Source: a virus (Duplodnaviria > Caudoviricetes). From it: 64,000 bases of DNA. Each line of letters starts with the position of its first letter. The stretch's first letter is position 1. Positions 1,065-61,710 of the stretch are shown here, one piece after another. The stretch spans positions 620 through 64,619 of the IMG/VR virus record IMGVR_UViG_3300031993_000074. One strand, 5' to 3'. The notes under the pieces are model-generated. The model was not told the origin of the DNA and did not search any database. It was given only the letters and a program-made list of their open reading frames with translations. The translations under genes and the position numbers were made by a program.

Positions 1065-1099
1065 ATTATATCATATTTCTGTGTATTCCGTCAATACAC
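1065..1099 (-). promoter_or_regulatory. sigma70-type promoter with an overlapping palindromic operator
   Basis: TTGACG (1094-1089), 18-nt spacer, TGaTATAAT (1073-1065). Inverted repeat GTGTATT-N5-AATACAC at 1081-1099 covers the -35. Confidence 0.75.
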
Positions 1100-25022: not shown

Positions 25023-28000
25023 ATGGCAGACCGCTATGAATCAATGAGTGACGACGAACTCCGCGCCGCCTACGCCGCGATGCAGTCGAAGCCGCCGGAA
25101 GAGTCAGAACCCGACTATGAGTCAATGAGCGACGACGAGCTCCGAGCAGCCTATGCCGGCCTGTCCTCCACGTCTCCAGTCTCTAGTCCTGCCGCATCCG
25201 CTCCGTCGGATGCGCAGCCCGACCCCAACGCCGAAAGCGCCGCGACAAAGCTCTCCGGCGTGAAGGAGGGCGACTTTGTGGCCGTCACGGGCCGAGATGG
25301 CAAGGTGTCGCTAAAGAAGATGAACGCTCCAGTTGATGGCGCAAGCGTCCTTGAGGACGTGGACGATGTGCCCGACATGAACAAGACCTACACGACGCTT
25401 TCCGCCGCCGAGTGGGACGCGGGGCGCGAGAGCGGCAAGGTGAAGATGAACGTCTCGCCCGCGAGGTATCGGCAGCTCCAGCACATCGCGGAGACGGGAA
25501 GCGATCTCTTTGAAGATGACGGCGGAAAGTTCATGTCGGCGTATGCCGACGTTATGCCGTATGGCGGTCGCAAAGCGGTTGACAAGGAACGCAACAAGAT
25601 CGCCCGTATGGAGAAGTACGTCAAGGGAGAGCCAGACCTTGCGCCGTACTCGAAGATTGCCCGCGAATTGACACCGACCAGCATTGGCCCGACAAAATAC
25701 GTCAGCCCTTTCAGCAAGCAGATGAAAGGCATTTCTCCCGATGAACAGTGGGCGGAGGAGGCGCGTATGCTCGGCGTCAAGGGCGATTTGAAGCGCGGCA
25801 AGGACGAAGACGAGGACGCCTACCACAAGCGCTTGCAGGGGCTTGTCGAGGAGAAGATGAAGGAGACCGTCTCGCGCCAGGACTGGGCGAAGAAGGAGCT
25901 GTCCTACATCGACAAGGACTGGAAGGACACGGTTTTCGGCGAAGGTCGTCAGTCCATTGCGTACGGCCTGGAGTTTGCCGCGACGCCCGTGCCGCTTGGC
26001 GGGTTTCTCAAGGCGGGCAAGGCCGCGAACATCCTCGTCAAGGCGGGAAGCAAGGTTGTCCGTGCGGCGATACAGACGGCTCCCGTCGCAATCGACCATG
26101 CCGCGTCCGACTACGAGAAGTTCCGTGAGAACGGCTACACGATGCGCAACGGCGACTTGATGATCGAGTCGAAAGGTGACGACCCCGGCACCGCGCTTTG
26201 GAAGGCCATCAAGAACAACGAGACGGAGGCGATACTCGAAGTCGTCGGCGGAGACCTCGCCGCGCCAGTCCTACGCGCCATCGGCAAGACAATCGGGAAG
26301 CATGCCGTCGGCAAGACGCTTGTCAGCATCGGCAAGGCATATGGCAAGATAAGGGACATGACGCACTTCGGCGACCCGATCTTTGAAGAAAACCTCTTCG
26401 AGGAAATGCCGCAGTACTTCTTCAGCGATGTCCTCGGCTGGGGCAAAAAGGACTCCGAGTACAAGGGATTCTACGAAGAGCTTGCAAACGCATTCGGCTA
26501 CGAGAAGAAGGTCGATCCCGAAACAGGTGTTGAGCGCTACGAGGGCAGCTGGCTCAAGGGCGAGGGAATGTACACGCCCAAGGGCTTCTGGAACACCTCG
26601 CTCGCCATGCTCCTCCAGATGGGCGGACAGGCCGCGATTGCCGCACCGGGTGCGGGGCTGAAGCACATCAAGAACAACCGCGAGCTCGCCAACATCCTCG
26701 AGGGCACGGGCATGACGAAGGAGCAGGTGGCAAACCTCTCCTACGCCCAGCGCGAGGCGTTCAGGCGCTTCCACGACCATTTCGCCGGCAATCCCGAAAA
26801 GCTGAAGCGCGCGCTTACGCTTTTCGACAAGCAGCTCGGGTCGATGGCTGACGAACTTGTGAGGCAGACGACCTTCAGGACGATGCAGACCATCATGGAC
26901 TACCGCGACGAGAACGGACAGCCCGTGAAGCCGCATCTCTTCGAGGTGCAGACCGAAACGGGGGCGGACGGAAAGCCGCGCCCGAAGTTCAGCAGTCAGT
27001 TCATCGTTCGTGGTGACGGCAAGAACAGCGAGACGCGCAAGCAGATGTTCGACCCCGTCGCGCAGGTGTCGATAGAGGACAACGGCGACGGCACGTACTG
27101 CGTTCATGACGAGGCGCATCCTGACCGCTCCGCATACTTTGACAACTTCGAAGAGGCCGTTAGGCAGGCGAACTTCTATTCCTGCACAAACCAGAAACTG
27201 CGGCTTGACAACAAGGTAAAGGCGCAATACGCCCGTACGCTTACGCAGGGCGAGAACGCGAAGTACAAAAAGCCAGCCGTATTTCTGGAGAGCGTTCGGG
27301 ACGTGCATTTTGCACTTTCCAATGCGATACGTGAACAGGGCGGCATATTCGGCATCAATGCGAAGAACATCGGCCAGGTGTTCCAGACCGACGAGAACGG
27401 TGAAGTCCTCTATCCGCCGCGTCTCGTCGTAGGGAACACGTCTCGCGGATTAACGACACCCGACGGGACGAAGATCGTCATCCTCGACAACATCCGCAGC
27501 CCAGAGGACATGAACACCGTCCTTTCTCACGAGGCCGGGCATGTCGCGGGCCGCGCGAACCAGGAAGAGCGCCTTGAAATGCTGCGCCGCGCATCACCAG
27601 ATTCGGAAGTTGGGCGTGAAATCGCGCGGCTTAAGGCGATAAACGAGAGGCTGGGCAACAAGTATTCCGAAGCGAAGATACTTGACGAGGCGTTTTCCAA
27701 CTGGCTATCAAGGCGTGGACACAATCCATCGCTCATGCAGAGGCTTTCGCACAAGATGCTCGGCAAGGTCGGACAGCTCAACGACGCCGACTTCGAGGTG
27801 ATCGCCTCGCAAATCGAGAAAGACGAGGCGAGCGGAAGCGGCGAAAATGTACACTTCTTTGAAGACAACCAATTTGACTCTACGGCCGAATCTGCCGAAG
27901 AGCCGGAAATGCCAACCGAAACACCAACACAAGGAGAAAGCAATGAGACAGGAAATGTGCCCGATGAAGCACCAGCGCAACCCGAACAAGGGGCATCTGG

Positions 28001-31000
28001 GCAATCGGAAGCCGGAGAAGTGGGCGAAGCTGAAGCACCAGTCGCGCCGCGAGCAGAAACGCCAGATGCGGGAGTGGTAAAGGAAGTCGCCGAACTGGCG
28101 AAGAAGCGTCAAGAGCTGCAATCGCAGTACGACGCTAATCTCGACGAGGACGGCAATCCGCAAGACTCTGAGACGGCTTCAAAGCTCTCGAAGGAGATCG
28201 ACGCGATTGATTCGCGGCTAGGTGAAATCGAGGCGGCAAAACCCGGCATTCTCTCGCCGGAGTTGAAGGCCGTTGCAAGAACGCCGAAGTCGGCGAACGG
28301 CGCAGCGACGCACGTCAATCCAGCGCCAAAGGCAAAATCGAAGGCCGACGAGATCTCCGAGCAGATTGAAGCCGGAAGAAGGAAGCGCGACGATGATGCC
28401 AAGGCGGCAAACGAAAGTCTCGCCAAGACAAATCCATCTGGACGGGCTTTTGCCGACAAGGAGGACTTGAAGCAAAATGGTCAAGTAGGCGATAAACTTG
28501 TTGCAGCTAACGGTGCGGAGATGGAGGTTGTTGGTAAAACAGCCAATGGTCGAAACAAAATCAAAAGGACACGAACGAGAAAATTCACCGTTGATTACGG
28601 CAAGACGTGGCATGACGGTATTGAGTCCGGCGCAACTCTTCCAGCTTCAGACTACTATGGCGACAAACTCGACGAAGGTGATCCCCGTGAAAATGTGAAT
28701 GTCGTCACTTTCGACGATGGAAACAACGAGGAATTGAAAAATCGTTACAACGCCGCCGTTGAGGCTTTTCGTGCGGGCGACGAGCACGCTCTTGACAATT
28801 TCTACTACGAAGCCGAGATTGTGGGAGACAATGATGTTGTATGGCATTTGCGTGAGAAGCCTGGAAATGCCACTGCCGCGCCCGCCGCTTCTCGCGCGTC
28901 TGGCGAGGCTCCGCGCCGCCTTACGAGCGCCGAGGAGGCCATTGCGACGGCCAAGACGCCGTTCAACGCCGCAGAAAAAGCCACCTTGAAGGACGCTGCG
29001 GACGTGTCGGCCATCGACTCCACGGACGAAATGCCGGAGCAGAGGGACTACCTCTCGATTCTCTCCAAGGACGCGCCCGTCGTGCGGCTCAATCCGGCGA
29101 AGGTTGACCGCTCCGACGCGATCCTCCCCAACATGAAGAAGGACGCCAACCGCGTGAGCGGCATCACGAAGCCGCTTTCCGGAGAATGGCACCCGACGAT
29201 GGGCGGAATCGGCGCGGTGTGGCTCACGAAGGACGGAAAGCTTGTCGTGATTACGGGACGGCACCGCTCCGAACTTGCCGAACGCAAGGGCAAGAGCATG
29301 TTGTACTATCTCTACCGCGAGGCCGACGGCTTCACGAAGGACGACGCTTTGATCTACGACGCCGTGGCGAACATCCACGACGAGAAAGGAACGATAAATG
29401 ACTACCTCGGATTCCTCGACAGAATCAACCCAACCAGAGAGCAGGCAGAAAAAGCCGGAATCCTCTCAGGGAAAGGGCTCGTTGCATGGAGCCTTTATAA
29501 AGATGCTACCGAAGCTGTCCGAAGCGCAACGGCAATGGACGGCAACCCAAGCGAGGGCCAAATAAGCCCGCAGCAGGCAACCGTCATAGCCGAAGCGGCG
29601 CCGCGTGACGCGGACAAGCGCAACCCCAGCATTCAGCGGCAACTCCTTAAAACCGCACTTGGCGGGATGCGCGGCAAGGCGTTCGACATGTACGCCAGAA
29701 TCCGCGCGGACGAACTGTCGAGAACGCCGTTGAACGAGAACCTTCTTGCCGGGGAGCAGATGGACTTGTTCTCGTCGCCGGAGGACCAGGCGGCGGACAT
29801 CCTCGCGCAGCGCCAGTCGCAGTACCGCACCAAGAAGGCCAACGGCTACGGCGAAGTCGCGAGGAACCTGCGGACTGCGCTCAACGGCGAGGGCAAGCTT
29901 GAACTCAACGACGAGTACGCCAAGGAGCTTGGCGTCACGGACAAGACCGACAAGAAGCAGCTGGAGGCGGCATACGACAAGGCGGTGGAGCGCGCCAACT
30001 ACTGGGAGAACACCGTCCGGCTGGACGAGGCCGACAAGGCGGCTATGAACGCGGAGATCAACGCGGCTGCGGACGCAAGGGCGAAGAAGCTTGCGGAGCT
30101 TAAAGCAAAGCGCGAGGCGGCGAAGAGCGGCAAGCCGAAAGTGGTTGTTTCCAAAAATGCAACAACCACTCCCGCCGATGAAACGAAACTCCCTGCGGGT
30201 GAAACAAAACCCGCCGCAGGTGAAACGAAAAGGCCAAGCGGTGAAACGAAAAAGGCCGATTCTGAAACGAAAAAGCCCGTTTCGGAAACGCAAAAACCGG
30301 CTTTGGGAACGGAAAACGCCGTTTCGGAAACGAAAACGGGCAAAACCGAAATGTCCAAGGCCGCGTCCAAAACGCCGTCCATCAAGATGAAGGACGAGGC
30401 GGCGGAGAAGCTTGCGCAGCAGCAGGAGGACGATCTCGCCGCGCTGTTCGACACGCCCGAGCTGGACGTCAAGGACGCGGGCGAGAACGAGGCAAAGTAC
30501 CTTTCGTGGGCGAAGAGGTGGAAGCTCGACCCGTCGAAGAAGAAGAACCAGCGCGAATGGGCGGAGCGGAACGGCGTGTCATTCGACACCCCCGAGTTCG
30601 ACCCCGACATATTCCAAAAGCGCGTCGGCGCGGTCGCGAAGCTCGTAAAGACGTATCAGGACAACGGCGTTGCGGACTTCAAGACCCTCGCCACGCGCAT
30701 GGCCGAGCGCTTCCCGGAGAAGTTCGCGACCATGAAGCCGTACCTGCGCGGCGTGTGGAACGCCGTGGCGGACCAGATGAAACTTTCGGACGTTTCGCGC
30801 GACGACGCGGAGCGGATTTTTTCCGCTATTGAGAAACCAGTAGGAAATGCGCCAGCAGAGACACCGAAAGCACCGCCAGCTAATAAGCTCATGTCCACTC
30901 GCATTTCCGACGCGGCCGATGAGATTGTCGCGCTCATCGAGAGCGGCGAGAAGTTCACTCGCAAGGAAGTGACCGACATTGTGGAGCGCCAGCTTGGCGG

Positions 31001-34000
31001 CAAGGTTGCAAACGGCGACTTCGACGCAAAGCAGGTGACGGACATTCTTGAACTGGCTGTAAATCGCTACATCAAAACGGCAAACTTCACCGACGTGGAC
31101 GGCGTGTACTACACGCCGGACGGCGATCAAGGTGCCGCAAAGGACAAGATACGCAATCTGCGAGACCTGCTGTCCAGCATTCCCACGCAGACTACGCGCT
31201 CGGTGGAACAGGATAAAATGCAGCAGTTCTCGACCGTGCCGCACGAGGCGTTTGCCGCCGCATGGGTGGCGAACATTGGCAAAAACGATGTTATGCTTGA
31301 GCCGTCCGCTGGAATTGGTGGCATTGCGGTGTTTGGCGCGAATGCCGGCGCGAAGGTCATTACGAACGAGCTTTCATCGCGTCGCGCCGAGATACTTGAA
31401 CAGCTTGGCATCGGCAAGCCGTATGAGTTTAACGCCGAAAACCTATACGCCTACCTTGAACCGATGATCAAGAGCGGCGAGGTGAAGCGCCCGACGGTCG
31501 TTGTGATGAACCCGCCGTTCAGCAATTCGCAGCGCACGAACAAGAAAAACACGCACATTGGCGCAGACCACGTGGAGCAGGCACTAAAGCTTCTCGCCCC
31601 CGGCGGACGACTTGTTGCAATCGTTGGAAACGGCATGGCGCACGATAAGCCCGCATTCAAGGCATGGTGGGACAGGATTGGCAAGGAGTACACAGTCCGC
31701 GCAAACATCGGCGTGAACGGTCAGGAGTATGCAAAGTACGGAACGACTTTTGACAACAACATAATCGTGATCGACAAGGTTGCGCCGAACGGCTCAATTG
31801 CGCCGATTTATGATATAATATCGTCGCTGGACGAACTTCCGGCGATGCTGGAAGGAGTAAGGAATGACAGACCTAAGATCGAAAATCGAAAACTGGATAC
31901 TCGCGCTGACGAGCGAGTGGAACAGCAGACTGTACGACCAGGACAGGCACGTGCCGAACGACCAATGCTACGACCTGGAGGGAACGGGGATAGAAACTCT
32001 CAACCTGACGGACGACGAGTATCTTTGGGAATACGAGGAGATGATGGAAGGCAAGGAGAACGTGGGGAGCCTGACGGACGAGGAGATAGAGGAGACGGTG
32101 AACAGTCTTCACTCAATGCTCTGCTAGATACCGACGGACTGACAGTCCAGAGCGTCGAGCAGACGCGTGAAGTTGGGGACGGCATGTTCTCCGAGTACAA
32201 GCCGAGCAAAGTCAGCGTTCCAGGCATGAAGCCGCACCCAACGGCGCTTGTGGAGTCTTCCGCAATGGCGTCAGTCCAGCCGCCGAACCCGACGTATTCC
32301 CCGAAGATACCGAAGAAGATTATCGAGGACGGCGTTCTTTCCGAGGCTCAGATCGAGCAGGTCGTGTATGCTGGACAAGCACACCAGCAGAAGCTTGGCA
32401 ACGGCGAACGCAAGGGCTACTTCATAGGTGACGGCACGGGCGTCGGCAAGGGACGCGAAATCTCCGGCATCATCCTTGACAACTTCAATAACGGACGGCG
32501 CAAGGCTTTGTGGATTTCAAAAACCGGGGAACTTTCACGAGACGCAAAGCGCGACCTTACCGCTTTTGGCCTTGGCGACGAGTTATTCACTCTCGAGAGC
32601 AAGAATCTCAAAGGCTTTACATCAAGATCTCACGGTGTTGCGTTCACAACTTATTCGTCGCTCGCAGAAAACCACGAGGGAATTGACGACAACGGAACGA
32701 TACGCGCATCACAGAAAGCAAAAGGCGGATCGCGCATGCAGCTCCTCGCAAAGTGGCTCGGAAGGGACTTTGACGGAGTAATCGTATTTGACGAGTCGCA
32801 CAAGGCCGGCAATGCAGTGTCGGAGAGGGGCAAGCGCGGAATGACGAAGCCGTCAGACATGGCGCTCGCAGTTGTTGACTTGCAGAGGATTCTGCCGAAC
32901 GCTCGCATTGTCTATGTGTCTGCGACTGGCGCGACGGAAGTACGAAACCTCGCCTACGCAACAAGGCTTGGCCTGTGGGGAAAAGGGACGGCGTTCAAGG
33001 ACAGAGAGGCGTTCATCAACCAAGTGTCGAACGGCGGAATCTCCGTAATGGAGATCGTTGCACGAGATATGAAGGCGATGGGCGTTTATATGGCTCGCAC
33101 GCTCTCATACGAGGGAATCGAGAATGAGCGCGTGACACACGAACTTTCTCCAGACCAGATAAAGAACTACAATCTTCTTGCCGACACGTGGCAGATGGTG
33201 ATGGGCGAGATTGAGTCTGCGCTCATATCGTCTAACGGCATACACGGCAAGGCGAACGGCAATGTAAAGAGCGCGTTTTGGGGAGCGCATCAGCGATTCT
33301 TCAACCAGACGCTTACCGCGATGCAGATGCCGTCCGTGCTGAAGAAGGCGCGCGAGATGTGGGAAGCGGGTTATTCGCCCGTGTTCCAGATGGTATCTAC
33401 CGGCGAGGCGGCACAGAAGCGTTCTCTTGAAAAAGCGAGAAAAGCTGGTAATGGAGAAACCGACATTGAGAACCTTGACCTTTCTCCGCGTGAGATACTC
33501 ATACAGTTCGTAGAGCAGAGCTTTCCAACTGTGCAGTATGTCGAAGAGCAAACCGACGGAGGAAAGACGAGATGGGTTCCGCTTGTCGATTCAAACGGAA
33601 ATCCCGTACACGATCCAGCGGCCGTTGAGCGAAAGGAGCGTCTCATTGGCCGGTTGCAGCGGATGAAGCTCGGAGAAGCGCCGCTAGACATGATTCTCAA
33701 CGAGTTCGGGCATGAGAACGTTGCGGAGATCACGGGGCGCACGTCACGCCGCGAAATGGTGCGCAATTCTGATGGCGAAATGGAAATGCGCATGGTACGC
33801 AGGACCAAGAAGACTTCAAGACAGGAAGCGGAGGACTTCAACGACGGAAAGCGTACCGTACTGGTGTTCTCTGGGGCTGGAAATACCGGTTTCTCGTTCC
33901 ATGCCGACCGCAACTTCAAGAACCAGCGTCGCCGCGTTCAGTTCCTCATCGAGGCCGGCTACAATGCCGCCGATGCAATACAAGGGCTTGGCCGCACACA

Positions 34001-37000
34001 CCGCTCAAACGAATCCTCGCACCCGATCTACGAGCTTTGCTCCACAAACCTTCCGGGGCACAAGCGGTTCATGTCAACCATCGCGCGCCGTCTCGCGCAG
34101 CTCGGCTCGCTCACTTCCGGCGACCGTGGCGCGTCTGGCTCCGGAGTGTTCAGCGAATCCGACAACCTCGAAAACCAGTACGCGAAGAACGCCGTCCTTG
34201 ACTTGTTCGAGGAGATGTTCCACGACGACCCGGAGAAGTTCAATCGCATCTGCTCCGAGATGGGCTTCATGAAAGCCCGCGTCAATCCTGAAAGCGGCGA
34301 ACGCGAGTACGTCAACACGCTCATCGACGCGGACGGGAACTTTGACCCGAAGGAAGAGCTTGCGATCCCGCACTTCCTCAACCGCATCCTCGCCATGAAG
34401 ATCGACGCGCAGAACGAGCTGTTTGACGCTTTCTCCGCGAAAATGGCTGATATGATAGAGCGCGCAAAGGATGCGGGAACTTTTGACCCAGGCATGGAGA
34501 AGTTGAAAGGCGTGACGGTGGAAGTGAAGAACCGTACCCGCCTGTGGGAGGACAAGGACAAGATCGGCATGACGGACATCGTTGAGGTCGGCGTCTCCAA
34601 GAAGTCAAAGAAAACGGACTATCAGACGGCACAGTCGCGTCTTGACTATTCTGCCGCCGCCGGCGCGACTCCGACAGTGTATGTCCACAATGCCAGCGGT
34701 GAAGTGTTGATGATGGTTGAAACGAAGTCCACCAAAACGATGGCCGACGGTTCTATTGTTAACGTGTACAGGCAACTGAAACCTAATGGTGAATCGGGTT
34801 ATACAACCGAAACAGCCGTGGAGAAGAACTACACGCCGTTGTTTGCCGAGGGTGAAAAGCGCTGGACAGAAGCTTACGACGCCGTGCCGGAACTCATCGA
34901 GCAATCGCAGTTCTTCGCGCATGGAACGCTCCTACCTATCTGGGATAGGCTCGGTGCGACTAATCCACGCTTCTTCAAGATCGCACCGACGGGCGGCATA
35001 GAGACACAGCCGTTTCTTGGTATGCAGATTGACGCCGACCGTGTGAATGACGTGCTACAGCGTTTTGGCAGGGCCGTAGGAGCTGTAGAGGTGACACCAG
35101 ACATCATCCTGAACCGCATCATGAAGGACGGCAAGAAAGTCGAGTTGCAAAACGGCTGGACCCTAAAGCGCGTCAAGGTGTTGGGTGACAGTCGCATCGA
35201 GATCGACGGCGTGGACGAAGAGGACGAGATAAGACGTCTTGCGAGTGAGGGCTACGCCTACGCAGAGAAGATCGGCTATCTCCGCGCATTCGTGAAGCCA
35301 GATGCCGAGAATGTCGCGGCATTCCTGAATGAGTACCCCGCGATTCCTGACAAGGGCGGGCTTTCAACCGTTTCTGGGACTGCGGAGGATTTGAGCGGTG
35401 ACAAGTACAAGGAACCGCTTGAAACGCTCTACTCGCAGCTGAAAGAAGAACTTTCGGCAAATATGTTCCGGGACAACGACGAGAAAGTTCATGTGGCGGA
35501 AGATAGTGTGCGCAATTTCCTTGTGCGCTTGTCAAACGAGCAGCTGGAAGAGGTGTTCGACAAGTATGCGGCTATAGATTCAGGTCGTCATTCGCCAGGT
35601 CGCATTCTTCGTCGCATAGCTGCAAACGAGTTGTCTGCGCGTGGTGCGCTTGATTGGAACCGCTATGAACAGGCCGAGCGAGAGGCTGGCGGCAATTTCG
35701 TCGATTTCGACACGCCCGAGCTTATGCCAGAGGAACCCGTGCCAGAGACATTCGGGCTTACGAACGACGACATCGCGTTCGCCCGCAAGGTTGCGGAAAT
35801 GAAGCCAATTGGACACACGGAGAAGTCGCACGAGTTCCAGTTTCAGCAGGCAAACGCCCTTCTTTCAAACCGCGAATACATGGAACACTTGGCAAAGGCA
35901 GTTGCAAAAGTGCCGCGCGCGACAAGCCCCCACGTTGACCTTGCGCTTGGAATCTTCCACAAGATCGTGGAGCGCGAAGTAAACGCGGCAAGGGAGAAGG
36001 TAAAGGCGCTACAAGCCGTCGTCGAAGAGCTGAAAGGCGAGAAGGATTCAGAATTCGACGAGGAGCGCAAGCAGTCCGCGCAGGACTTGAAGGACGCCAA
36101 GAAGGAGCTTGAGGCAAAGACGCAGCTTCTCGACAAGATCGGCATTGCCCACAACGAGGGCGGCAGCGAGGCTGCGAGGACGCTCAACCTGCGCCGTGCG
36201 CTGGCGAACGCCGCAGACTATTCCTATGCCGGCATCCGCAACGCAGTCGCGGAAGAGATGGCGAAGATCAAGGGCGCGATAACGCCGGAGCTGGAGAAGC
36301 GCATAGGCGAACTTGCCGACATGTTCTCCGGCCTCGACGAGAAACAGGCGGATGTTCTTGTTTCCATCATGAAGCCATTTGCCGAAAGCGAGCTGAACAA
36401 GATAAAGAACGGCAACAAGATCAAGCGCGCGGCGGAGCGGATGCCGGGCGACGAGGCCAAGCGCGTAGTGCGCAACTACAACGATGCACTTGCGCAGCTG
36501 GAGGTTGCAGCAAGGGAGACAGGGGGCGTGTTTGTCGGGCTTGCCGACGAGAAGCAGCCCGGCTGGGGCAAGTTCCTACGCGCAATCGCCGAGTACCACT
36601 GCTTTGAGAACCCTGACATCAAGGTGGACGAGGTTGTCCAGAAGATGGTTGAGACGCTCCACGCCTGCGGCTTCGAGGATGTGGACGAGGTGTCTGTCTG
36701 GGACGAGTGGACAGGCTACGGACACAGCTTCCGCCAGAGCCGCTACGAGTCGCAGCGCAGGGCGAACTGGCTGAGGAGCCAGGCACTGCACAAGCGGCAG
36801 CTGCACCACATGGACGAGACGAACACGCTTCCGCTCGCCACGGGAATGCAGCGCGACGTTGACCCGACACCAGAGGGCCGTGCGCTGACGAAGGAGGTTT
36901 ACGAGCGCAAGAAGGAGGTTCCGGACGAAGGACGCGCGGAGCGGCATCTAAAGGGGCTGCTCGAATCGGCGAAGACCAGGATTCGGAACACGATAGCCGA

Positions 37001-39227
37001 CCTGGAGAACGCGATCGCGACGGGCGAGAAGATACCGGGGCGCGACCGCACCGTGCCGGAGGACATCGAACTACGGGAACTGCGCAAGCGCAAGGAGGAG
37101 CTGCGCAAGGCCTACGACGAGATTTTCGGCACTACGCGGACGCTTACGGACGCGCAACGGGTCGCGCTTGCCGAGACGGCGGCGGCAAGACAGCTTGAAT
37201 ACGCGATGGCAGACCTTGAGCGCGCACGGCAGGGTGACTTCTCGAAGCGCCCGAAGCGCCCAGGCGTGGAATCTCCCACGCTCGACGTTCTACGCGAAAG
37301 GACGCGACAGGCGCGTGAAGAGCTGTTTGCGCTGAAGAACGCGGCGTTCGAGTACGGCATGACGCCCGAGGAAGTTGAGGCGTACAACGCAAGGCGCATC
37401 AAGCGCAAGGAAGATGCGCTCATGAAGTATGCGGAGCGCATCGCCACGGGCGACATCCGCACGAACGTGAAGCCGAAGCCACCGCTCTCCCCGGAGCAGC
37501 AGAAGCGGTACGACGAGCTTGACGAGCAGCAGAAAAAAGCGCGGCGCAAGATGAAGCAGCTCCGCGAGGACGCCCGCAGGGCGGCATGGTGGCCGGCCGC
37601 GAAATCGGTGGCAGACTACTGGCAGTATCTGACGGGCATGTTCGTCGCGCACAAGGCGTCTGCCGACAGGAGCGCGGTCTTGCGACAGGCCCTCATGCTG
37701 ACGGCTGCGCATCCCGTTCTCGCCGCAAAGGACATGGCAATCGCGGAAAAGGCCGCGTGGAGCAAGAGGAAGTTCGACGAAGTGAACGCCGACATCCTTG
37801 CCGACCCGATCATCAGGGACGCAGTGGAGAACCACGGACTAAAGCTCCGCAGCACCGACATTGCCAACATTCACGATGTCGAAATGTTCAGCGGCGTTGA
37901 TCGCATCCCGCCGAAGATGATTCAACGTCTGAACAAACTGTTCGACATGATTCCGGGCGTCGGCAAAATATACAGCGGTGTCCGCAAGGTGGATAGAGCC
38001 ATTCTCGAAAACTCCGAACGGCACTACGTCACGTTCCTGAACCTTATGTCGTCGCAGACGTACAAGATGCTTCTTGACGCAATCCCGGACGCCTCTGACT
38101 ACCAGAAGAAAAGGATTGCGTATCTCGTCAACATGTACAGCGGACACGGCGCGATGAGCGAGAAGACTCGGAACAACGTCAACAGCCTCAACAACACGCT
38201 GGGACACGCCATCTGGTCGCCGTCCCTTGCGGCAGCGCAGATTCAGCAGGCGATGTTCCTCGATGTTCTCGGAACGCCTGGAATAAGCCGCGAAGGAGGC
38301 AGGGACGGCGGCTTTGCCACGGGCAAGGAGGCTGCGCAGGTCACGAAGAAAGCCGTCAAGATGCGCATTCGCGCAGAATTGGCCATCCTTGCGCTCGGTT
38401 CCCTCCTTGCGCTGCTCTGGTCTGACGACGACTGGAAGAGCGAATGGCTTACAAAATGGCGGAATGTGTGGAATGCAAGCGGTGCGGATAAGGTCCTTGC
38501 GTTCTTCAATGCCGTCGAAGCGACGAAGCATCCCGTGCTTGGCAAGACGCACGTTGACCTCGAAATGGGCAAGCGCACGTTCAACAGGATTCTCGGCCTT
38601 GCCTTGACTGGCGAGTACGAGACATCTACCGGGCGAATGGTCACGACTTCCAGCTTTGTCGGGAAGGACCTTGCGGACATGTTTGGACGGTACTTCTACG
38701 GGAAGTTGTCGCCTCATTATAGCGCGATGTTCTCCATTGCAAACCGTAAGACTTTTACCGGCGAGCCAGTCAGCTTCGACAACATGCTTGCCGACATGCT
38801 TCCGATACCCCTTGCCGCAAAGGATGTTGTGCAGTCGGCAATCGAGGACAAATGGAGCAACCTCCAGGCTCCGGCGGCAATCGTTCTGACGCTTCTCGGC
38901 GCGGGCGGCAACGTCTACGACGAGAAATACTACGAACGCGCCGTGAACAGATACGCGGAATACAAGAAGATCGAGAACGACGATCTTCTGGTCGAAAAGG
39001 ACAAGAATGCCATCCTTGAATCCATGCGTACGTCATACCCGTTCCTGAAGGACGATGTGCGCTACCAGATTGAAGATCACATCCGGGACATCAACCGCGA
39101 CAAGGCCGACATTCAGAAGTGGCGCAAGCAGGGCGCGACCGATGACGACAAGGACATCAAGGAAGCGGAAGCCGCTATTGAGACGGCCAAGACCGCCATT
39201 CTTGAGCTTGTCCGCAAGAACCGCTAA
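25023..39227 (+). CDS. Giant polyvalent (DarB-like) protein, 4734 aa: HExxH peptidase, ParB-like domain, N6-adenine methyltransferase, Strawberry-notch-type SF2 helicase
   Basis: SHEAGH (27528-27542); ParB-like VVITGRHR (~29240); MTase motif I MLEPSAGIG (~31295) and NPPF (~31508); GYFIGDGTGVGKG (~32415), FDESHK, and a helicase-C-like region (QGLGRTHRSN); duplicated N-terminal YESMSDDELRAAYA. Confidence 0.9.
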   Translation: MADRYESMSDDELRAAYAAMQSKPPEESEPDYESMSDDELRAAYAGLSSTSPVSSPAASAPSDAQPDPNAESAATKLSGVKEGDFVAVTGRDGKVSLKKMNAPVDGASVLEDVDDVPDMNKTYTTLSAAEWDAGRESGKVKMNVSPARYRQLQHIAETGSDLFEDDGGKFMSAYADVMPYGGRKAVDKERNKIARMEKYVKGEPDLAPYSKIARELTPTSIGPTKYVSPFSKQMKGISPDEQWAEEARMLGVKGDLKRGKDEDEDAYHKRLQGLVEEKMKETVSRQDWAKKELSYIDKDWKDTVFGEGRQSIAYGLEFAATPVPLGGFLKAGKAANILVKAGSKVVRAAIQTAPVAIDHAASDYEKFRENGYTMRNGDLMIESKGDDPGTALWKAIKNNETEAILEVVGGDLAAPVLRAIGKTIGKHAVGKTLVSIGKAYGKIRDMTHFGDPIFEENLFEEMPQYFFSDVLGWGKKDSEYKGFYEELANAFGYEKKVDPETGVERYEGSWLKGEGMYTPKGFWNTSLAMLLQMGGQAAIAAPGAGLKHIKNNRELANILEGTGMTKEQVANLSYAQREAFRRFHDHFAGNPEKLKRALTLFDKQLGSMADELVRQTTFRTMQTIMDYRDENGQPVKPHLFEVQTETGADGKPRPKFSSQFIVRGDGKNSETRKQMFDPVAQVSIEDNGDGTYCVHDEAHPDRSAYFDNFEEAVRQANFYSCTNQKLRLDNKVKAQYARTLTQGENAKYKKPAVFLESVRDVHFALSNAIREQGGIFGINAKNIGQVFQTDENGEVLYPPRLVVGNTSRGLTTPDGTKIVILDNIRSPEDMNTVLSHEAGHVAGRANQEERLEMLRRASPDSEVGREIARLKAINERLGNKYSEAKILDEAFSNWLSRRGHNPSLMQRLSHKMLGKVGQLNDADFEVIASQIEKDEASGSGENVHFFEDNQFDSTAESAEEPEMPTETPTQGESNETGNVPDEAPAQPEQGASGQSEAGEVGEAEAPVAPRAETPDAGVVKEVAELAKKRQELQSQYDANLDEDGNPQDSETASKLSKEIDAIDSRLGEIEAAKPGILSPELKAVARTPKSANGAATHVNPAPKAKSKADEISEQIEAGRRKRDDDAKAANESLAKTNPSGRAFADKEDLKQNGQVGDKLVAANGAEMEVVGKTANGRNKIKRTRTRKFTVDYGKTWHDGIESGATLPASDYYGDKLDEGDPRENVNVVTFDDGNNEELKNRYNAAVEAFRAGDEHALDNFYYEAEIVGDNDVVWHLREKPGNATAAPAASRASGEAPRRLTSAEEAIATAKTPFNAAEKATLKDAADVSAIDSTDEMPEQRDYLSILSKDAPVVRLNPAKVDRSDAILPNMKKDANRVSGITKPLSGEWHPTMGGIGAVWLTKDGKLVVITGRHRSELAERKGKSMLYYLYREADGFTKDDALIYDAVANIHDEKGTINDYLGFLDRINPTREQAEKAGILSGKGLVAWSLYKDATEAVRSATAMDGNPSEGQISPQQATVIAEAAPRDADKRNPSIQRQLLKTALGGMRGKAFDMYARIRADELSRTPLNENLLAGEQMDLFSSPEDQAADILAQRQSQYRTKKANGYGEVARNLRTALNGEGKLELNDEYAKELGVTDKTDKKQLEAAYDKAVERANYWENTVRLDEADKAAMNAEINAAADARAKKLAELKAKREAAKSGKPKVVVSKNATTTPADETKLPAGETKPAAGETKRPSGETKKADSETKKPVSETQKPALGTENAVSETKTGKTEMSKAASKTPSIKMKDEAAEKLAQQQEDDLAALFDTPELDVKDAGENEAKYLSWAKRWKLDPSKKKNQREWAERNGVSFDTPEFDPDIFQKRVGAVAKLVKTYQDNGVADFKTLATRMAERFPEKFATMKPYLRGVWNAVADQMKLSDVSRDDAERIFSAIEKPVGNAPAETPKAPPANKLMSTRISDAADEIVALIESGEKFTRKEVTDIVERQLGGKVANGDFDAKQVTDILELAVNRYIKTANFTDVDGVYYTPDGDQGAAKDKIRNLRDLLSSIPTQTTRSVEQDKMQQFSTVPHEAFAAAWVANIGKNDVMLEPSAGIGGIAVFGANAGAKVITNELSSRRAEILEQLGIGKPYEFNAENLYAYLEPMIKSGEVKRPTVVVMNPPFSNSQRTNKKNTHIGADHVEQALKLLAPGGRLVAIVGNGMAHDKPAFKAWWDRIGKEYTVRANIGVNGQEYAKYGTTFDNNIIVIDKVAPNGSIAPIYDIISSLDELPAMLEGVRNDRPKIENRKLDTRADERVEQQTVRPGQARAERPMLRPGGNGDRNSQPDGRRVSLGIRGDDGRQGERGEPDGRGDRGDGEQSSLNALLDTDGLTVQSVEQTREVGDGMFSEYKPSKVSVPGMKPHPTALVESSAMASVQPPNPTYSPKIPKKIIEDGVLSEAQIEQVVYAGQAHQQKLGNGERKGYFIGDGTGVGKGREISGIILDNFNNGRRKALWISKTGELSRDAKRDLTAFGLGDELFTLESKNLKGFTSRSHGVAFTTYSSLAENHEGIDDNGTIRASQKAKGGSRMQLLAKWLGRDFDGVIVFDESHKAGNAVSERGKRGMTKPSDMALAVVDLQRILPNARIVYVSATGATEVRNLAYATRLGLWGKGTAFKDREAFINQVSNGGISVMEIVARDMKAMGVYMARTLSYEGIENERVTHELSPDQIKNYNLLADTWQMVMGEIESALISSNGIHGKANGNVKSAFWGAHQRFFNQTLTAMQMPSVLKKAREMWEAGYSPVFQMVSTGEAAQKRSLEKARKAGNGETDIENLDLSPREILIQFVEQSFPTVQYVEEQTDGGKTRWVPLVDSNGNPVHDPAAVERKERLIGRLQRMKLGEAPLDMILNEFGHENVAEITGRTSRREMVRNSDGEMEMRMVRRTKKTSRQEAEDFNDGKRTVLVFSGAGNTGFSFHADRNFKNQRRRVQFLIEAGYNAADAIQGLGRTHRSNESSHPIYELCSTNLPGHKRFMSTIARRLAQLGSLTSGDRGASGSGVFSESDNLENQYAKNAVLDLFEEMFHDDPEKFNRICSEMGFMKARVNPESGEREYVNTLIDADGNFDPKEELAIPHFLNRILAMKIDAQNELFDAFSAKMADMIERAKDAGTFDPGMEKLKGVTVEVKNRTRLWEDKDKIGMTDIVEVGVSKKSKKTDYQTAQSRLDYSAAAGATPTVYVHNASGEVLMMVETKSTKTMADGSIVNVYRQLKPNGESGYTTETAVEKNYTPLFAEGEKRWTEAYDAVPELIEQSQFFAHGTLLPIWDRLGATNPRFFKIAPTGGIETQPFLGMQIDADRVNDVLQRFGRAVGAVEVTPDIILNRIMKDGKKVELQNGWTLKRVKVLGDSRIEIDGVDEEDEIRRLASEGYAYAEKIGYLRAFVKPDAENVAAFLNEYPAIPDKGGLSTVSGTAEDLSGDKYKEPLETLYSQLKEELSANMFRDNDEKVHVAEDSVRNFLVRLSNEQLEEVFDKYAAIDSGRHSPGRILRRIAANELSARGALDWNRYEQAEREAGGNFVDFDTPELMPEEPVPETFGLTNDDIAFARKVAEMKPIGHTEKSHEFQFQQANALLSNREYMEHLAKAVAKVPRATSPHVDLALGIFHKIVEREVNAAREKVKALQAVVEELKGEKDSEFDEERKQSAQDLKDAKKELEAKTQLLDKIGIAHNEGGSEAARTLNLRRALANAADYSYAGIRNAVAEEMAKIKGAITPELEKRIGELADMFSGLDEKQADVLVSIMKPFAESELNKIKNGNKIKRAAERMPGDEAKRVVRNYNDALAQLEVAARETGGVFVGLADEKQPGWGKFLRAIAEYHCFENPDIKVDEVVQKMVETLHACGFEDVDEVSVWDEWTGYGHSFRQSRYESQRRANWLRSQALHKRQLHHMDETNTLPLATGMQRDVDPTPEGRALTKEVYERKKEVPDEGRAERHLKGLLESAKTRIRNTIADLENAIATGEKIPGRDRTVPEDIELRELRKRKEELRKAYDEIFGTTRTLTDAQRVALAETAAARQLEYAMADLERARQGDFSKRPKRPGVESPTLDVLRERTRQAREELFALKNAAFEYGMTPEEVEAYNARRIKRKEDALMKYAERIATGDIRTNVKPKPPLSPEQQKRYDELDEQQKKARRKMKQLREDARRAAWWPAAKSVADYWQYLTGMFVAHKASADRSAVLRQALMLTAAHPVLAAKDMAIAEKAAWSKRKFDEVNADILADPIIRDAVENHGLKLRSTDIANIHDVEMFSGVDRIPPKMIQRLNKLFDMIPGVGKIYSGVRKVDRAILENSERHYVTFLNLMSSQTYKMLLDAIPDASDYQKKRIAYLVNMYSGHGAMSEKTRNNVNSLNNTLGHAIWSPSLAAAQIQQAMFLDVLGTPGISREGGRDGGFATGKEAAQVTKKAVKMRIRAELAILALGSLLALLWSDDDWKSEWLTKWRNVWNASGADKVLAFFNAVEATKHPVLGKTHVDLEMGKRTFNRILGLALTGEYETSTGRMVTTSSFVGKDLADMFGRYFYGKLSPHYSAMFSIANRKTFTGEPVSFDNMLADMLPIPLAAKDVVQSAIEDKWSNLQAPAAIVLTLLGAGGNVYDEKYYERAVNRYAEYKKIENDDLLVEKDKNAILESMRTSYPFLKDDVRYQIEDHIRDINRDKADIQKWRKQGATDDDKDIKEAEAAIETAKTAILELVRKNR
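27943..28080 (+). CDS. Candidate nested (+1 frame) basic peptide (45 aa) inside the giant gene
   Basis: SD AAGGAG at 27931-27936. Third-position G/C bias sits in this frame, while the giant-gene frame becomes A-ending and low-complexity. Confidence 0.5.
   Translation: MRQEMCPMKHQRNPNKGHLGNRKPEKWAKLKHQSRREQKRQMREW
30171..30335 (+). repeat. 21-bp (7-aa, xxxETK) tandem repeat within the giant gene
   Basis: GAAACGAAA-like cores at 30180, 30201, 30222, 30243, 30264 and 30285. Confidence 0.8.
31811..31819 (+). promoter_or_regulatory. Internal extended -10 promoter within the giant gene
   Basis: Exact TGnTATAAT (TGATATAAT), 44 nt upstream of the nested ATG at 31864. Confidence 0.6.
31864..32127 (+). 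CDS. Nested (+1 frame) acidic protein (87 aa) between the MTase and helicase domains
   Basis: SD AAGGAG (31852-31857); upstream TGATATAAT; GC3-rich codons; about 22 D/E vs 5 K/R. The giant frame here is an R/G-rich shadow-like linker. Confidence 0.7.
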   Translation: MTDLRSKIENWILALTSEWNSRLYDQDRHVPNDQCYDLEGTGIETLNLTDDEYLWEYEEMMEGKENVGSLTDEEIEETVNSLHSMLC

Positions 39228-40980: not shown

Positions 40981-41009
40981 ATTATACCACACAAATTTTG
41001 CGATTGCAA
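40981..41009 (-). promoter_or_regulatory. sigma70 promoter for the Rep-like operon
   Basis: TTGCAA, 17-nt spacer, TGgTATAAT. Confidence 0.7.
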
Positions 41010-41426: not shown

Positions 41427-41508
41427 TTGACCTGCAAATGCCGTTCGTGGTATAATACCATTCATGCGACGATAGGCTATTGACTGGCGCGGGGCCTTAT
41501 GGTACAAT
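41427..41508 (+). promoter_or_regulatory. Two tandem sigma70 promoters upstream of the integrase
   Basis: TTGACC-18-TATAAT (41427-41456) and TTGACT-17-TACAAT (41480-41508), both with extended TG. Confidence 0.7.
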
Positions 41509-59943: not shown

Positions 59944-59972
59944 ATTATATCACAGGTTGGTTGAACCCGCAA
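59944..59972 (-). promoter_or_regulatory. Main leftward sigma70 promoter
   Basis: TTGCGG, 17-nt spacer, TGaTATAAT. Confidence 0.75.
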
Positions 59973-60022: not shown

Positions 60023-60031
60023 TGGTATAAT
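60023..60031 (+). promoter_or_regulatory. Divergent extended -10 promoter
   Basis: TGGTATAAT, 25 nt upstream of ATG 60057. Confidence 0.65.
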
Positions 60032-61667: not shown

Positions 61668-61710
61668 GAATCACGACGGACATTATATCATTCCGCCGTG
61701 ATTCTGTCTA
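61668..61710 (-). promoter_or_regulatory. sigma70 promoter with its -10 box in the loop of a 13-bp inverted repeat
   Basis: TAGACA-17-TGaTATAAT; GAATCACGACGGA-N11-TCCGCCGTGATTC (one mismatch). Confidence 0.65.

Follow-up and report, generated by a model that had tools for sequence, protein, structure and literature searches.

Can the linker between the two enzyme modules of a giant phage protein, a low-complexity segment that looks meaningless as protein, be the trace of a second gene read in another frame? The question is raised by a 64,000-nt stretch of DNA from a tailed phage (in the following, the window), in which a single frame-0 ORF of 4,734 codons (25,023–39,227, plus strand) encodes a polyvalent DarB-like protein. 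A methyltransferase (MTase)-like Pfam match has been located at about residues 2097–2235 of this protein, and a Strawberry-notch helicase follows, with Pfam AAA_34 at residues 2404–2717 and Helicase_C_4 at residues 2887–3159. Between the MTase-like and AAA_34 matches, at about residues 2281–2368, lies a +1-frame ORF, for which the original prediction had proposed a hidden, self-contained gene overprinted on the linker. Conservation in the +1 frame and the substitution pattern have both supported this proposal, and it is very probable that 31,864–32,127 is a true gene, which overlaps the giant gene on the same strand and encodes a small, acidic, helical protein. Pipelines used to annotate bacteria and phages do not allow long out-of-frame overlaps, and beyond the tiny genomes of some viruses, few long out-of-frame pairs are known to be conserved between distant lineages. 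For the pair described here, support comes from the conserved start codon, from selection that differs between the frames, and from predicted folds of high confidence.

The Nested Reading Frame and Its Start Signals

The nested ORF (31,864–32,127, plus strand) comprises 87 codons and a TAG stop, and its acidic product P0001 (22 D/E vs. 5 K/R; pI 4.05) is predicted to fold into four helices, with aromatic residues spaced along the chain (W11, W19, Y24, Y36, Y53, W55, and Y57). All of its start signals are made from frame-0 codons of the motif LEGVRNDR (31,848–31,871, plus strand), the last conserved motif on the methyltransferase side, inside which the nested ORF begins. The Shine-Dalgarno sequence AAGGAG (31,852–31,857, plus strand) arises from the codons GAA GGA GTA and is separated by a 6-nt spacer from the ATG at 31,864, which itself arises from AAT GAC. 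The same motif provides a +1-frame TAA (31,858–31,860, plus strand) one codon upstream of the nested ATG, and the nested frame can therefore not be entered by read-through from upstream. Changing the AAT at 31,863–31,865 to AAC would be silent in the giant protein and would remove the nested ATG. The sequence features named in the original prediction, that is, the element TGATATAAT, the spacing of AAGGAG, the 87-aa ORF, and its acidity, have all been confirmed.

Downstream of the motif, frame 0 encodes an R/G/D/E-rich linker (31,872–32,186, plus strand) that is unconstrained in sequence and stop-free, and that gives way to the conserved helicase-side start FSEYKPSK... (32,187–32,232, plus strand), with the AAA_34 match beginning at about 32,232. 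The nested ORF ends about 20–21 codons short of the anchor at 32,187. Its GC content at codon positions 1/2/3 is 0.52/0.31/0.76, compared with 0.61/0.41/0.71 for the giant gene overall. Across the nested ORF the codon-position GC pattern switches to the +1 frame, and the GC3 of the giant frame drops to 0.32–0.45 over the same stretch.

Conservation of the Start Site Across the Family

A corresponding ATG has been found at the identical position in 110 of 151 homologous loci, and others have GTG or a nearby ATG, which bears out the earlier suggestion of an unannotated gene layer in the linkers of DarB-like/Strawberry-notch giant genes. In the frame-0 context LEG(I/V)RNDR, the nested start combines the AT of an NAT codon with the G that opens the next codon. 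The third base of the Asn/Asp/His codon at this site is T in 94 of 95 clusters, where 41 are expected (P about 8e-37; such very small P values are rough, since clustering at 80% identity does not make the clusters fully independent). A Shine-Dalgarno match of at least 4 nt precedes 98% of the nested ATGs of the family vs. 28% of control out-of-frame ATGs; it is formed by Glu-Gly(-Val) codons and is located 5–10 nt upstream of the ATG. The +1 stop one codon before the ATG is shared by the window and many relatives, and the N-terminus of the +1 product is conserved in the family from the Met onward. At the 110 loci with the identical ATG, the +1 ORFs are 87–152 codons long and end 8–30 codons before the helicase anchor.

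The carriers are about a hundred methylase-helicase genes of phages, plasmids, and chromosomes from several phyla, with a plasmid of Methylotuvimicrobium alcaliphilum 20Z (NC_016108.1) and Sporomusa ovata DSM 2662 as cultured examples. A profile search has revealed one plasmid with the nested ORF, and the ORF has not been found in the plasmids of Phaeobacter, Rhizobium, and Nostoc that were examined. Among cultured phages and plasmids, tblastn with the canonical nested product has returned no match; tblastn with the carrier region has likewise returned none from the cultured-phage collection, and no DNA similar to the window locus has been found in cultured phages. Two products related to P0001 (92% and 64% identical) occur in rumen-type metagenome contigs; a search of viral contigs and JGI metagenome contigs for P0001 relatives has found none.

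Two family members are free-standing (in G377 and G325; E 1e-26 to 1e-28). Both begin at the same Met as the nested copies, and one of them has a Shine-Dalgarno sequence of its own, while its frame equivalent to that of the carrier is interrupted by several stops. Their surroundings are a prophage early region and adjoining McrBC-like genes.

Within the family, P0001 stands apart. The main family HMM reaches it, together with P0003 and P0004, at E 0.01–0.05 only (in a search of these three sequences), and the canonical motifs N..P.N..A and LYLLQL..W.L are missing from it. A profile built from P0001, P0003, and P0004 matches the nested product of locus L095 over its full length (E = 1e-6) and has no match in the frame-0 and +2 control sets. 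As the match to the main profile is not significant, the membership of P0001 rests on where it lies, on how its start is built, and on the connection via L095. Judged by these sequence features, P0001 belongs to the family as a short and divergent member. No matching family has been found for the nested products in Pfam (P0001 and 60 members), NCBIfam, or PHROG, nor has a description of the nested gene been found in the literature. The nested products form an unnamed protein family that extends the repertoire of mobile elements.

Frame-Specific Selection

Across the family, the mean GC content of the linker at codon positions 1/2/3 is 0.61/0.35/0.72 in the +1 frame and 0.71/0.61/0.35 in frame 0, compared with 0.58/0.42/0.63 in the flanks. 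Among 4,656 sequence pairs, significant BLASTP matches have been obtained for 646 in the +1 frame, 61 in frame 0, and 43 in +2. Of 13 independent close pairs, all have a frame-0 omega of at least 1, while the 12 pairs for which the +1 omega could be computed range from 0.09 to 0.58; pooled over the family, omega is 0.28 in +1 vs. 1.59 in frame 0. Together with the low frame-0 GC3 of 0.35, this upholds the earlier view that in the linker the giant frame has degraded to a compositional shadow. Synonymous resampling that preserves the nested protein leaves frame 0 open in a mean of 3.5% of cases across the family and in 0 of 300 resamplings for the window; such rare openness implies that both frames are maintained. 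Conservation and purifying selection in the +1 frame of homologues had been set beforehand as the test on which the gene should stand or fall, and the outcome clearly favors the gene.

At the window locus itself, the pairwise test has been performed against one independent relative with DNA, as the loci L012 and L013 are identical in sequence; in both, frame 0 and +1 are open. Over the whole nested ORF, the comparison with L012 gives an omega of 0.43 in +1 and 1.24 in frame 0, compared with a frame-0 omega of 0.10 in the flanks. The 5′ third (31,864–31,944, plus strand) has a single change in 81 nt, while the synonymous divergence in the flanks amounts to 0.33–0.46. Such suppression is expected under constraint on both frames; the invariant block could also stem from recombination in the recent past, or from an element that acts as RNA or DNA. 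In the middle segment (31,945–32,010, plus strand), the substitutions are synonymous in +1 and nonsynonymous in frame 0, with a +1 omega of 0.096 (pS 0.67, pN 0.14) and a frame-0 omega of about 14. The 3′ third is saturated, with an omega of 0.6–0.85 in all frames.

These results bear on two explanations that would do without a separately initiated gene. The nested ORF might be a mere by-product of a hydrophobic-poor linker, in which codons starting with G would produce both an open +1 frame and a high GC3. Indeed, when the frame-0 protein was kept and its codons were resampled synonymously with local codon usage, the +1 frame at the window locus was open in 28% of cases, close to the 29% averaged across loci. 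Such openness is not unusual, because a linker with few hydrophobic residues seldom has T as the second base of its codons, and frame-0 R/G codons are necessarily read as D/E/T in +1. The signal above chance therefore lies in conservation and in the substitution pattern rather than in ORF length alone. Composition leaves several observations unexplained: the ATG-creating T in 94 of the 95 clusters with its conserved Shine-Dalgarno sequence, the combination of a low frame-0 GC3 (0.35) with normal GC2 and GC3 in +1, the tenfold stronger conservation of the +1 products, the opposed omega values of the two frames in the family (0.28 vs. 1.59) and in the window pair (0.10 vs. 14), the confident predicted folds, and the free-standing homologues. 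The by-product reading is hence very improbable and has already been largely refuted. Even less credit can be given to a frameshift product, in which ribosomes slipping to +1 in the linker would yield a truncated methyltransferase with an acidic tail, although the two open frames share a strand and a product lacking the helicase could be useful. Against it stands the +1 stop that precedes the ATG by one codon in the window and in many relatives. What is conserved is a start codon with its Shine-Dalgarno sequence and not a slippery site, and the conserved +1 N-terminus begins at a Met that the free-standing copies share.

A double compensating frameshift, by which the acidic sequence would be the true in-frame linker, has been rejected, since the giant frame of all homologues reads a G/R/S/A-rich linker and no protein carrying P0001 in frame has been found among 1.84 billion representatives. 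The only other match among these, the repeat protein P0005 (667 aa, E = 9e-7), covers about 41 residues in four repeats and has been set aside as a chance match inflated by repeats.

Expression and the Candidate Internal Promoter

For the preferred reading, a same-strand overlapping gene, the following course of expression may be proposed. Ribosomes would initiate at the ATG at 31,864, directed by AAGGAG; the codons of LEGVRNDR, with which the methyltransferase module ends, supply both signals. From there, +1 translation would cross the DNA whose frame 0 encodes the disordered methyltransferase-helicase spacer. Selection targets the +1 amino-acid sequence, with stop codons alone being forbidden in frame 0, so that the giant protein stays in one piece. 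As the signal that is common to the family consists of the Shine-Dalgarno sequence and the ATG, translation off the mRNA of the giant gene would be sufficient, and internal initiation on this mRNA is probably the general route.

In the phage lineage of the window, an extra transcript may start from TGATATAAT (31,811–31,819, plus strand), an extended −10-like element without mismatch that lies 44 nt ahead of the nested start codon and makes a candidate promoter. The motif TGNTATAAT occurs seven times in the window vs. 0.18 expected from shuffles, and the counterparts of the element in relatives read TGGTACAAT in L012 and TGGTAAAAT in L014. A consensus scan of 31,000–32,600 has found no −35 hexamer at a distance of 16–18 nt and no two-hexamer promoter; an extended −10 can function without a −35. 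Family-wide, −10 elements are not enriched (16% vs. 10% of control windows). Of the host sigma-70 promoter that had been predicted here, the exact extended −10 and the enrichment of its motif in this phage have stood, whereas neither a −35 nor a family-wide enrichment has been found, and an internal sigma-70 promoter is, from its sequence, plausible in this phage.

Predicted Fold of the Nested Product

AlphaFold2 has modeled P0001 with four helices (pLDDT 84.2, pTM 0.76, from an alignment of only 4 sequences) and a canonical family member with seven (pLDDT 88.4, pTM 0.82), which suggests that the nested product is a small acidic all-helical protein. The best structural neighbors of the P0001 model are the ACDC domain (Z 9.2) and DAXX (Z 6.8), from which no function has been inferred because generic four-helix bundles score in the same range; weak neighbors include the epsilon and PezA antitoxins (Z 4.8). 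For the canonical model, Foldseek has returned no match below E = 1, and the best VIA Z is 4.2. The best ESM Atlas score of 0.83 is under the level of a lead, and no significant match has been found between the nested family and PDB sequences.

Possible Functions of the Nested Product

Regarding its function, our best guess, which we hold tentatively, is that the nested gene encodes an autonomous accessory protein of mobile elements, whose target would be the host or a defence system and not the carrier enzyme. A more specific form of this idea, which we consider rather doubtful, takes the family for a new and widespread class of anti-defence or host-takeover factors in phages and conjugative elements, with the linker persisting largely as its carrier and a host-type promoter having been acquired in the lineage of this phage. 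Such a factor would be invisible to annotation because it resides in a second reading frame, and if this is true, its own promoter would let the nested gene function ahead of the late giant gene or independently of it.

It is somewhat unlikely that the nested protein is a cognate partner of the methylase-helicase, whose methyltransferase or helicase, translated from the shared mRNA, it would bind as an inhibitor (immunity factor), as a folding or packaging chaperone, or as an adaptor or regulator; nesting would then ensure co-inheritance and local co-synthesis. In almost every homologue the nested gene occupies this linker of the methylase-helicase, and its translation signals are embedded in the codons of that enzyme. 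Many secretion and packaging chaperones and antitoxins are small acidic helical proteins, a character which the nested product shares, and the epsilon/PezA antitoxins are among the weak neighbors of its model; all of these structural neighbors are, however, at the level of generic helical bundles. Two strong members are free-standing, and AAA_34 has not been found in the G377 and G325 assemblies that hold them (which may be incomplete); this argues against an obligate cognate inhibitor. The proposed role as inhibitor of the flanking enzyme is thereby weakened, and the obligate linkage to a target gene by which type II antitoxins are recognized is not seen in G377 and G325. Improbable, in our judgment, is an anti-restriction DNA mimic of the Ocr/ArdA kind, which would block restriction or other DNA-binding defences of the host and would here be expressed early from its own promoter. 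The strong acidity of P0001 (22 D/E vs. 5 K/R, pI 4.05) and the family medians (pI 4.7, net charge −8) fit such a role, as do its residence in a gene family that is regarded as anti-restriction (P1 DarB), the exact extended −10 upstream, and the free-standing copies in a prophage early region and beside McrBC-like genes. The acidity is uneven, however, with a pI of up to 9.15 and 26% of the members above pI 5; no Pfam match to ArdA or Ocr has been obtained, and neither protein is listed among the structural neighbors of either model, which is inconclusive.

In a giant anti-restriction protein, a low-complexity linker without apparent meaning can be a shadow cast by a real gene, and the “disordered linkers” of polyvalent proteins merit checks in their other frames.

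Comparison With Known Systems

A close parallel is the small Rz1 gene of phage lambda and many other phages, which likewise lies complete inside a larger gene, Rz, on its strand and in its +1 frame; the inner gene is expressed alongside the outer one from start signals of its own, and nested start signals are found here too. An embedded Rz1 class has been noted for phage JC1 (PMC9144972). Rz and Rz1 are, unlike the present pair, two subunits of one complex, with Rz1 being a lipoprotein. The outer gene here is a polyvalent enzyme gene of roughly 14 kb, the inner gene is limited to an unconstrained disordered linker, and free-standing copies of the inner gene exist.

In Bacillus subtilis, comS is a small out-of-frame gene inside the giant srfA-B that is translated from an internal Shine-Dalgarno sequence, and hence another accessory or regulatory gene hidden in the gene of a giant multidomain enzyme. 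It differs in having 46 codons and being restricted to a narrow taxonomic group, whereas the family described here has 87–150 codons, a predicted helical domain, and carriers in several phyla and element types. An out-of-frame ORF in a phage methylase gene, with the host frame kept open and missed by annotation, has also been described for ShiLan, where HNH endonucleases are inserted in actinophage DNA methylase genes (PMC11855218). These are sporadic homing insertions that carry an HNH nuclease, while no nuclease motif and no Pfam family with an HNH or homing-nuclease domain has been found in the hidden frame (P0001 and 60 family members), and the nested gene stays at one fixed site set by a conserved motif of the host frame and diverges along with its carrier.

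Ocr (T7 gp0.3) and ArdA are also small, very acidic mobile-element proteins tied to restriction escape, Ocr being helical. No sequence or detectable fold similarity has been found between them and the nested products, whose charge is moderate on average across the family. The carrier shares with P1 DarB and DarB-like proteins the fusion of methyltransferase and helicase and the location in an operon on the morphogenesis side of the phage, and its helicase differs in being of the Strawberry-notch type (AAA_34 with Helicase_C_4). In phage JC1, a DarB-like protein of 4,515 aa is virion-associated (PMC9144972). The closest full-length relatives are the proteins P0127, P0129, and P0130.

The Nested ORF and the Weight of an Open Frame

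The IMG/VR virus record holding the window (64.6 kb, estimated to be 98% complete) carries a giant ORF at 25023-39227, whose 4,734-residue product contains a methyltransferase-like stretch (residues about 2097-2235, Pfam) and a Strawberry-notch helicase (Pfam AAA_34 at residues 2404-2717 and Helicase_C_4 at 2887-3159). The original prediction had placed a hidden acidic gene in the linker between these domains, and all features listed for it, i.e., the -10-like element, AAGGAG, the ATG, the 87-codon ORF and the acidity, have been found at the locus. TGATATAAT lies at 31811-31819 upstream of the nested ATG, AAGGAG at 31852-31857 precedes ATG 31864 by 6 bases, and the ORF extends in the +1 frame over 87 codons to a TAG stop at 32125-32127; its product P0001 contains 22 D/E vs. 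5 K/R and has a pI of 4.05. The giant-frame reading over this ORF is of low complexity and rich in R/G/D/E, with a GC3 of 0.32-0.45 compared to 0.71 for the whole gene, and the codon-position GC of the nested ORF in the +1 frame is 0.52/0.31/0.76. Scanning of the whole giant gene has located a flip of the GC pattern to +1 only at 31833-32193 and 27843-28143. In the latter region, the difference between GC3 and GC2 is larger in +1 than in frame 0 by >0.35, and a +1 ORF of 77 aa (27847-28080), coinciding with an ORF noted separately at 27943 in the original prediction, is a candidate for a further nested gene, located in a different linker of the giant gene.

Part of this picture could arise by chance. 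A +1-frame stop can arise only where a frame-0 codon has T as its middle base, and such codons encode hydrophobic residues. In a disordered linker poor in these residues, the +1 frame is therefore open almost automatically, and its high GC3 results from the G-starting frame-0 codons of the linker. When the synonymous codons of the frame-0 linker were resampled with local codon usage, the +1 frame was open in 28% of the resamplings for the window and in 29% on average. Consequently, the existence, length and linker fit of the nested ORF are no evidence by themselves. The claim of a hidden gene overprinted on the linker is instead supported by conserved start signals and frame-specific selection.

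Conserved Start Signals

Methyltransferase-linker-helicase regions were taken from viral contigs, one genome per GTDB species and one closer Logan contig, giving a family set of 151 usable loci with 35-74% protein identity. A +1-frame ATG has been observed at the identical place in 110 of the 151 loci; its A and T end the sixth codon of the conserved frame-0 motif LEG(I/V)RNDR, and its G opens the seventh. Of the 95 clusters formed at 80% identity, 94 have T as the third base of the sixth codon (Asn/Asp/His), with 41 expected (P about 8e-37, a rough value as the clusters are not fully independent), and this T is kept even in GC-rich elements with a background T use of 6-20% at such codons. An SD match of at least 4 nt, provided by the upstream Glu-Gly codons, is present in 98%, compared to 28% for other out-of-frame ATGs of the same genes. 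Loci lacking the canonical ATG mostly possess a GTG one codon upstream or a nearby ATG, and are still matched by the family profile.

A planctomycete group uses a different SD-ATG derived from Glu-Glu-Asp codons, with a +1 ORF of 113-117 codons. In these Planctomycetota contigs (L120-L137, L152-L156, L165-L173), the frame-0 motif is L..LSQED, the Glu-Glu-Asp codons form GAGGAGGATG..ATG, the +1 ORF is of constant length and the main family profile gives no match; the group probably represents a strongly diverged offshoot of the same nested arrangement.

Selection and Maintenance of Both Frames

Among 5.8 billion protein clusters searched, two relatives of P0001 have been found (92 and 94 aa, 92% and 64% identical), both from short metagenome contigs. 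Two of the relatives' contigs, L012 and L013, were readable and share the same sequence, in which neither the giant frame nor the +1 frame is interrupted by a stop. Between the window and L012, the flanks show normal purifying selection in the giant frame (omega 0.10, pS 0.33-0.46). Over the initial 81 nt of the nested ORF, 1 change is seen in any frame; the next 66 nt carry +1-synonymous changes (pS 0.67, pN 0.14, omega 0.10), including two-step changes such as AGG -> CGC and CTC -> TTG, and when read in frame 0, these changes replace the residue at most positions (omega about 14). The last third is saturated and uninformative. This codon-position comparison is decisive for the window locus.

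Across the family, the linkers show a mean GC1/2/3 of 0.61/0.35/0.72 in the +1 frame and 0.71/0.61/0.35 in frame 0, with 0.58/0.42/0.63 in flanking frame 0, and genomic GC is tracked by the +1 third codon position. Significantly similar pairs among 4,656 are about ten times commoner for +1 (646) than for frame 0 (61) or +2 (43), and the +1 products have the motifs N..P(L/I)N..A and LY.LQL..W.L in common. Thirteen independent close pairs gave an omega(+1) of 0.09-0.58 (twelve computable cases) and an omega(frame 0) of 1.0-2.2 (all thirteen). The purifying selection on the +1 frame of homologues, by which the original prediction proposed to be judged, is therefore present, with a pooled omega of 0.28 compared to 1.59 in frame 0. 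Frame 0 in turn was open in only 3.5% of resamplings that keep the nested protein (0/300 for the window), indicating that the codon choice of the nested gene is constrained such that the giant protein stays in one piece. Both frames are thus maintained, +1 for its protein and frame 0 only as an open flexible tether.

At L139:1262-1656, on a Pseudomonadota MAG contig, a mid-linker one-base frame change splits the giant and nested ORFs across frames, attributable either to misassembly or to pseudogenization. In the contigs L158-L163 (Pyrinomonadaceae / Acidobacteriota), the methyltransferase and the helicase are encoded by two neighboring ORFs, there is hardly any linker between them, and the nested ORF is absent.

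Place of the Window's Copy in the Family

P0001 comprises 87 aa compared to a family median of 126, is devoid of the canonical N-terminal motifs and has no significant match to the family profile. A profile of the P0001 clade has matched the nested product of L095, a locus with a 58% identical carrier, over its full length (E = 1e-6), with nothing in control frames. The nested product of L014, whose carrier is 74% identical in the aligned region (67% by protein search), starts MTDLKSVI... (MTDLRSKI... in the window) and retains the canonical motif. Because its start site, start signals, frame and span are identical to those of the family, and owing to the L095 match and the L014 relative, P0001 may be read as a fast-diverged, truncated family member. 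Its AlphaFold2 model, with an alignment of four sequences only, consists of four helices (mean pLDDT 84) and resembles only generic four-helix bundles. For the canonical member L098 (Sporomusa ovata DSM 2662 chromosome), a fold of seven helices has been predicted (pLDDT 88.4, pTM 0.82), with no structural neighbor above Z 4.2.

Expression

What is conserved is an SD together with a start codon, which points to internal initiation: family-wide, ribosomes would start the nested protein internally on the mRNA of the giant gene. A frameshift fusion product is disfavored by a +1-frame TAA one codon upstream of the window's nested ATG and by the conserved Met-first N-terminus.

The promoter of the original prediction is to be judged separately. 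In its favor, TGNTATAAT occurs in 7 copies in the window vs. 0.18 expected from shuffles, and variants of the element are kept in L012 (TGGTACAAT) and L014 (TGGTAAAAT); against it, no -35 has been found at the window locus, and -10-like elements upstream of the nested start are barely enriched across the family (16% vs. 10% elsewhere in the same genes). An internal promoter in the window's lineage is plausible but unproven. The virion-gene block contains none of the other six exact copies of TGNTATAAT. These are located near 1.07 kb (1065-1073(-)) and between about 41 and 62 kb (40981-40989(-), 41448-41456(+), 59944-59952(-), 60023-60031(+) and 61682-61690(-)), and look like candidate host-type extended -10 promoters of the phage. 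Several copies adjoin regions that had been flagged as switches in the original prediction.

Function, Known Systems and Distribution

The nested family is acidic (median pI 4.7, net charge -8) and has no match in Pfam, NCBIfam, PHROGs, PDB sequences or the ESM Atlas. When 401 genomes of Sporomusa's phylum were searched by profile, six matches were obtained at E <= 7e-8, five of them <1e-25; of the latter, three lie within giant methylase-helicase ORFs and the remaining two are free-standing (L187:8276-8710 and L188:4768-5154, both on the (-) strand, E 1e-26 to 1e-28 with the family profile). In 401 genomes of Rugamonas's phylum, the only two matches are both nested. One free-standing copy resides in a prophage between DnaC-like/replication protein O-like genes and an integrase; in the frame equivalent to the carrier it retains the remnant GIRDDR, which indicates descent from a nested copy with loss of the carrier. 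The other is preceded by an SD of its own, shows many stop codons in the frame equivalent to the carrier, and adjoins McrBC-like, HD, ADP-ribosylglycohydrolase and HIRAN genes. Neither genome assembly, possibly incomplete, contains an AAA_34 match. Given these free-standing copies, an obligate role in inhibiting or chaperoning the carrier appears less likely, and they would favor a nested protein with its own target.

Genes nested in genes are exemplified by Rz1 inside Rz and comS inside srfA-B, whose layout is like that of the nested gene in the giant gene. Unlike the nested family, the HNH genes inserted out of frame into the methylases of actinophages are sporadic homing elements (PMC11855218). 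DarB-like giant proteins are virion components (PMC9144972), and our literature search has found no paper on a gene in the methylase-helicase linker. The nested gene is a same-strand overprinted gene, unusual in its breadth and in having a giant-protein linker as carrier.

RefSeq has no annotation of the nested gene in the four plasmids examined, of which one, NC_016108.1 of Methylotuvimicrobium alcaliphilum 20Z, clearly contains it. There, the nested gene (L174:1856-2209, family profile E = 4e-15) sits inside the 2,547-codon Strawberry-notch gene MEALZ_RS20390. Strain 20Z is a cultured, genetically tractable methanotroph.
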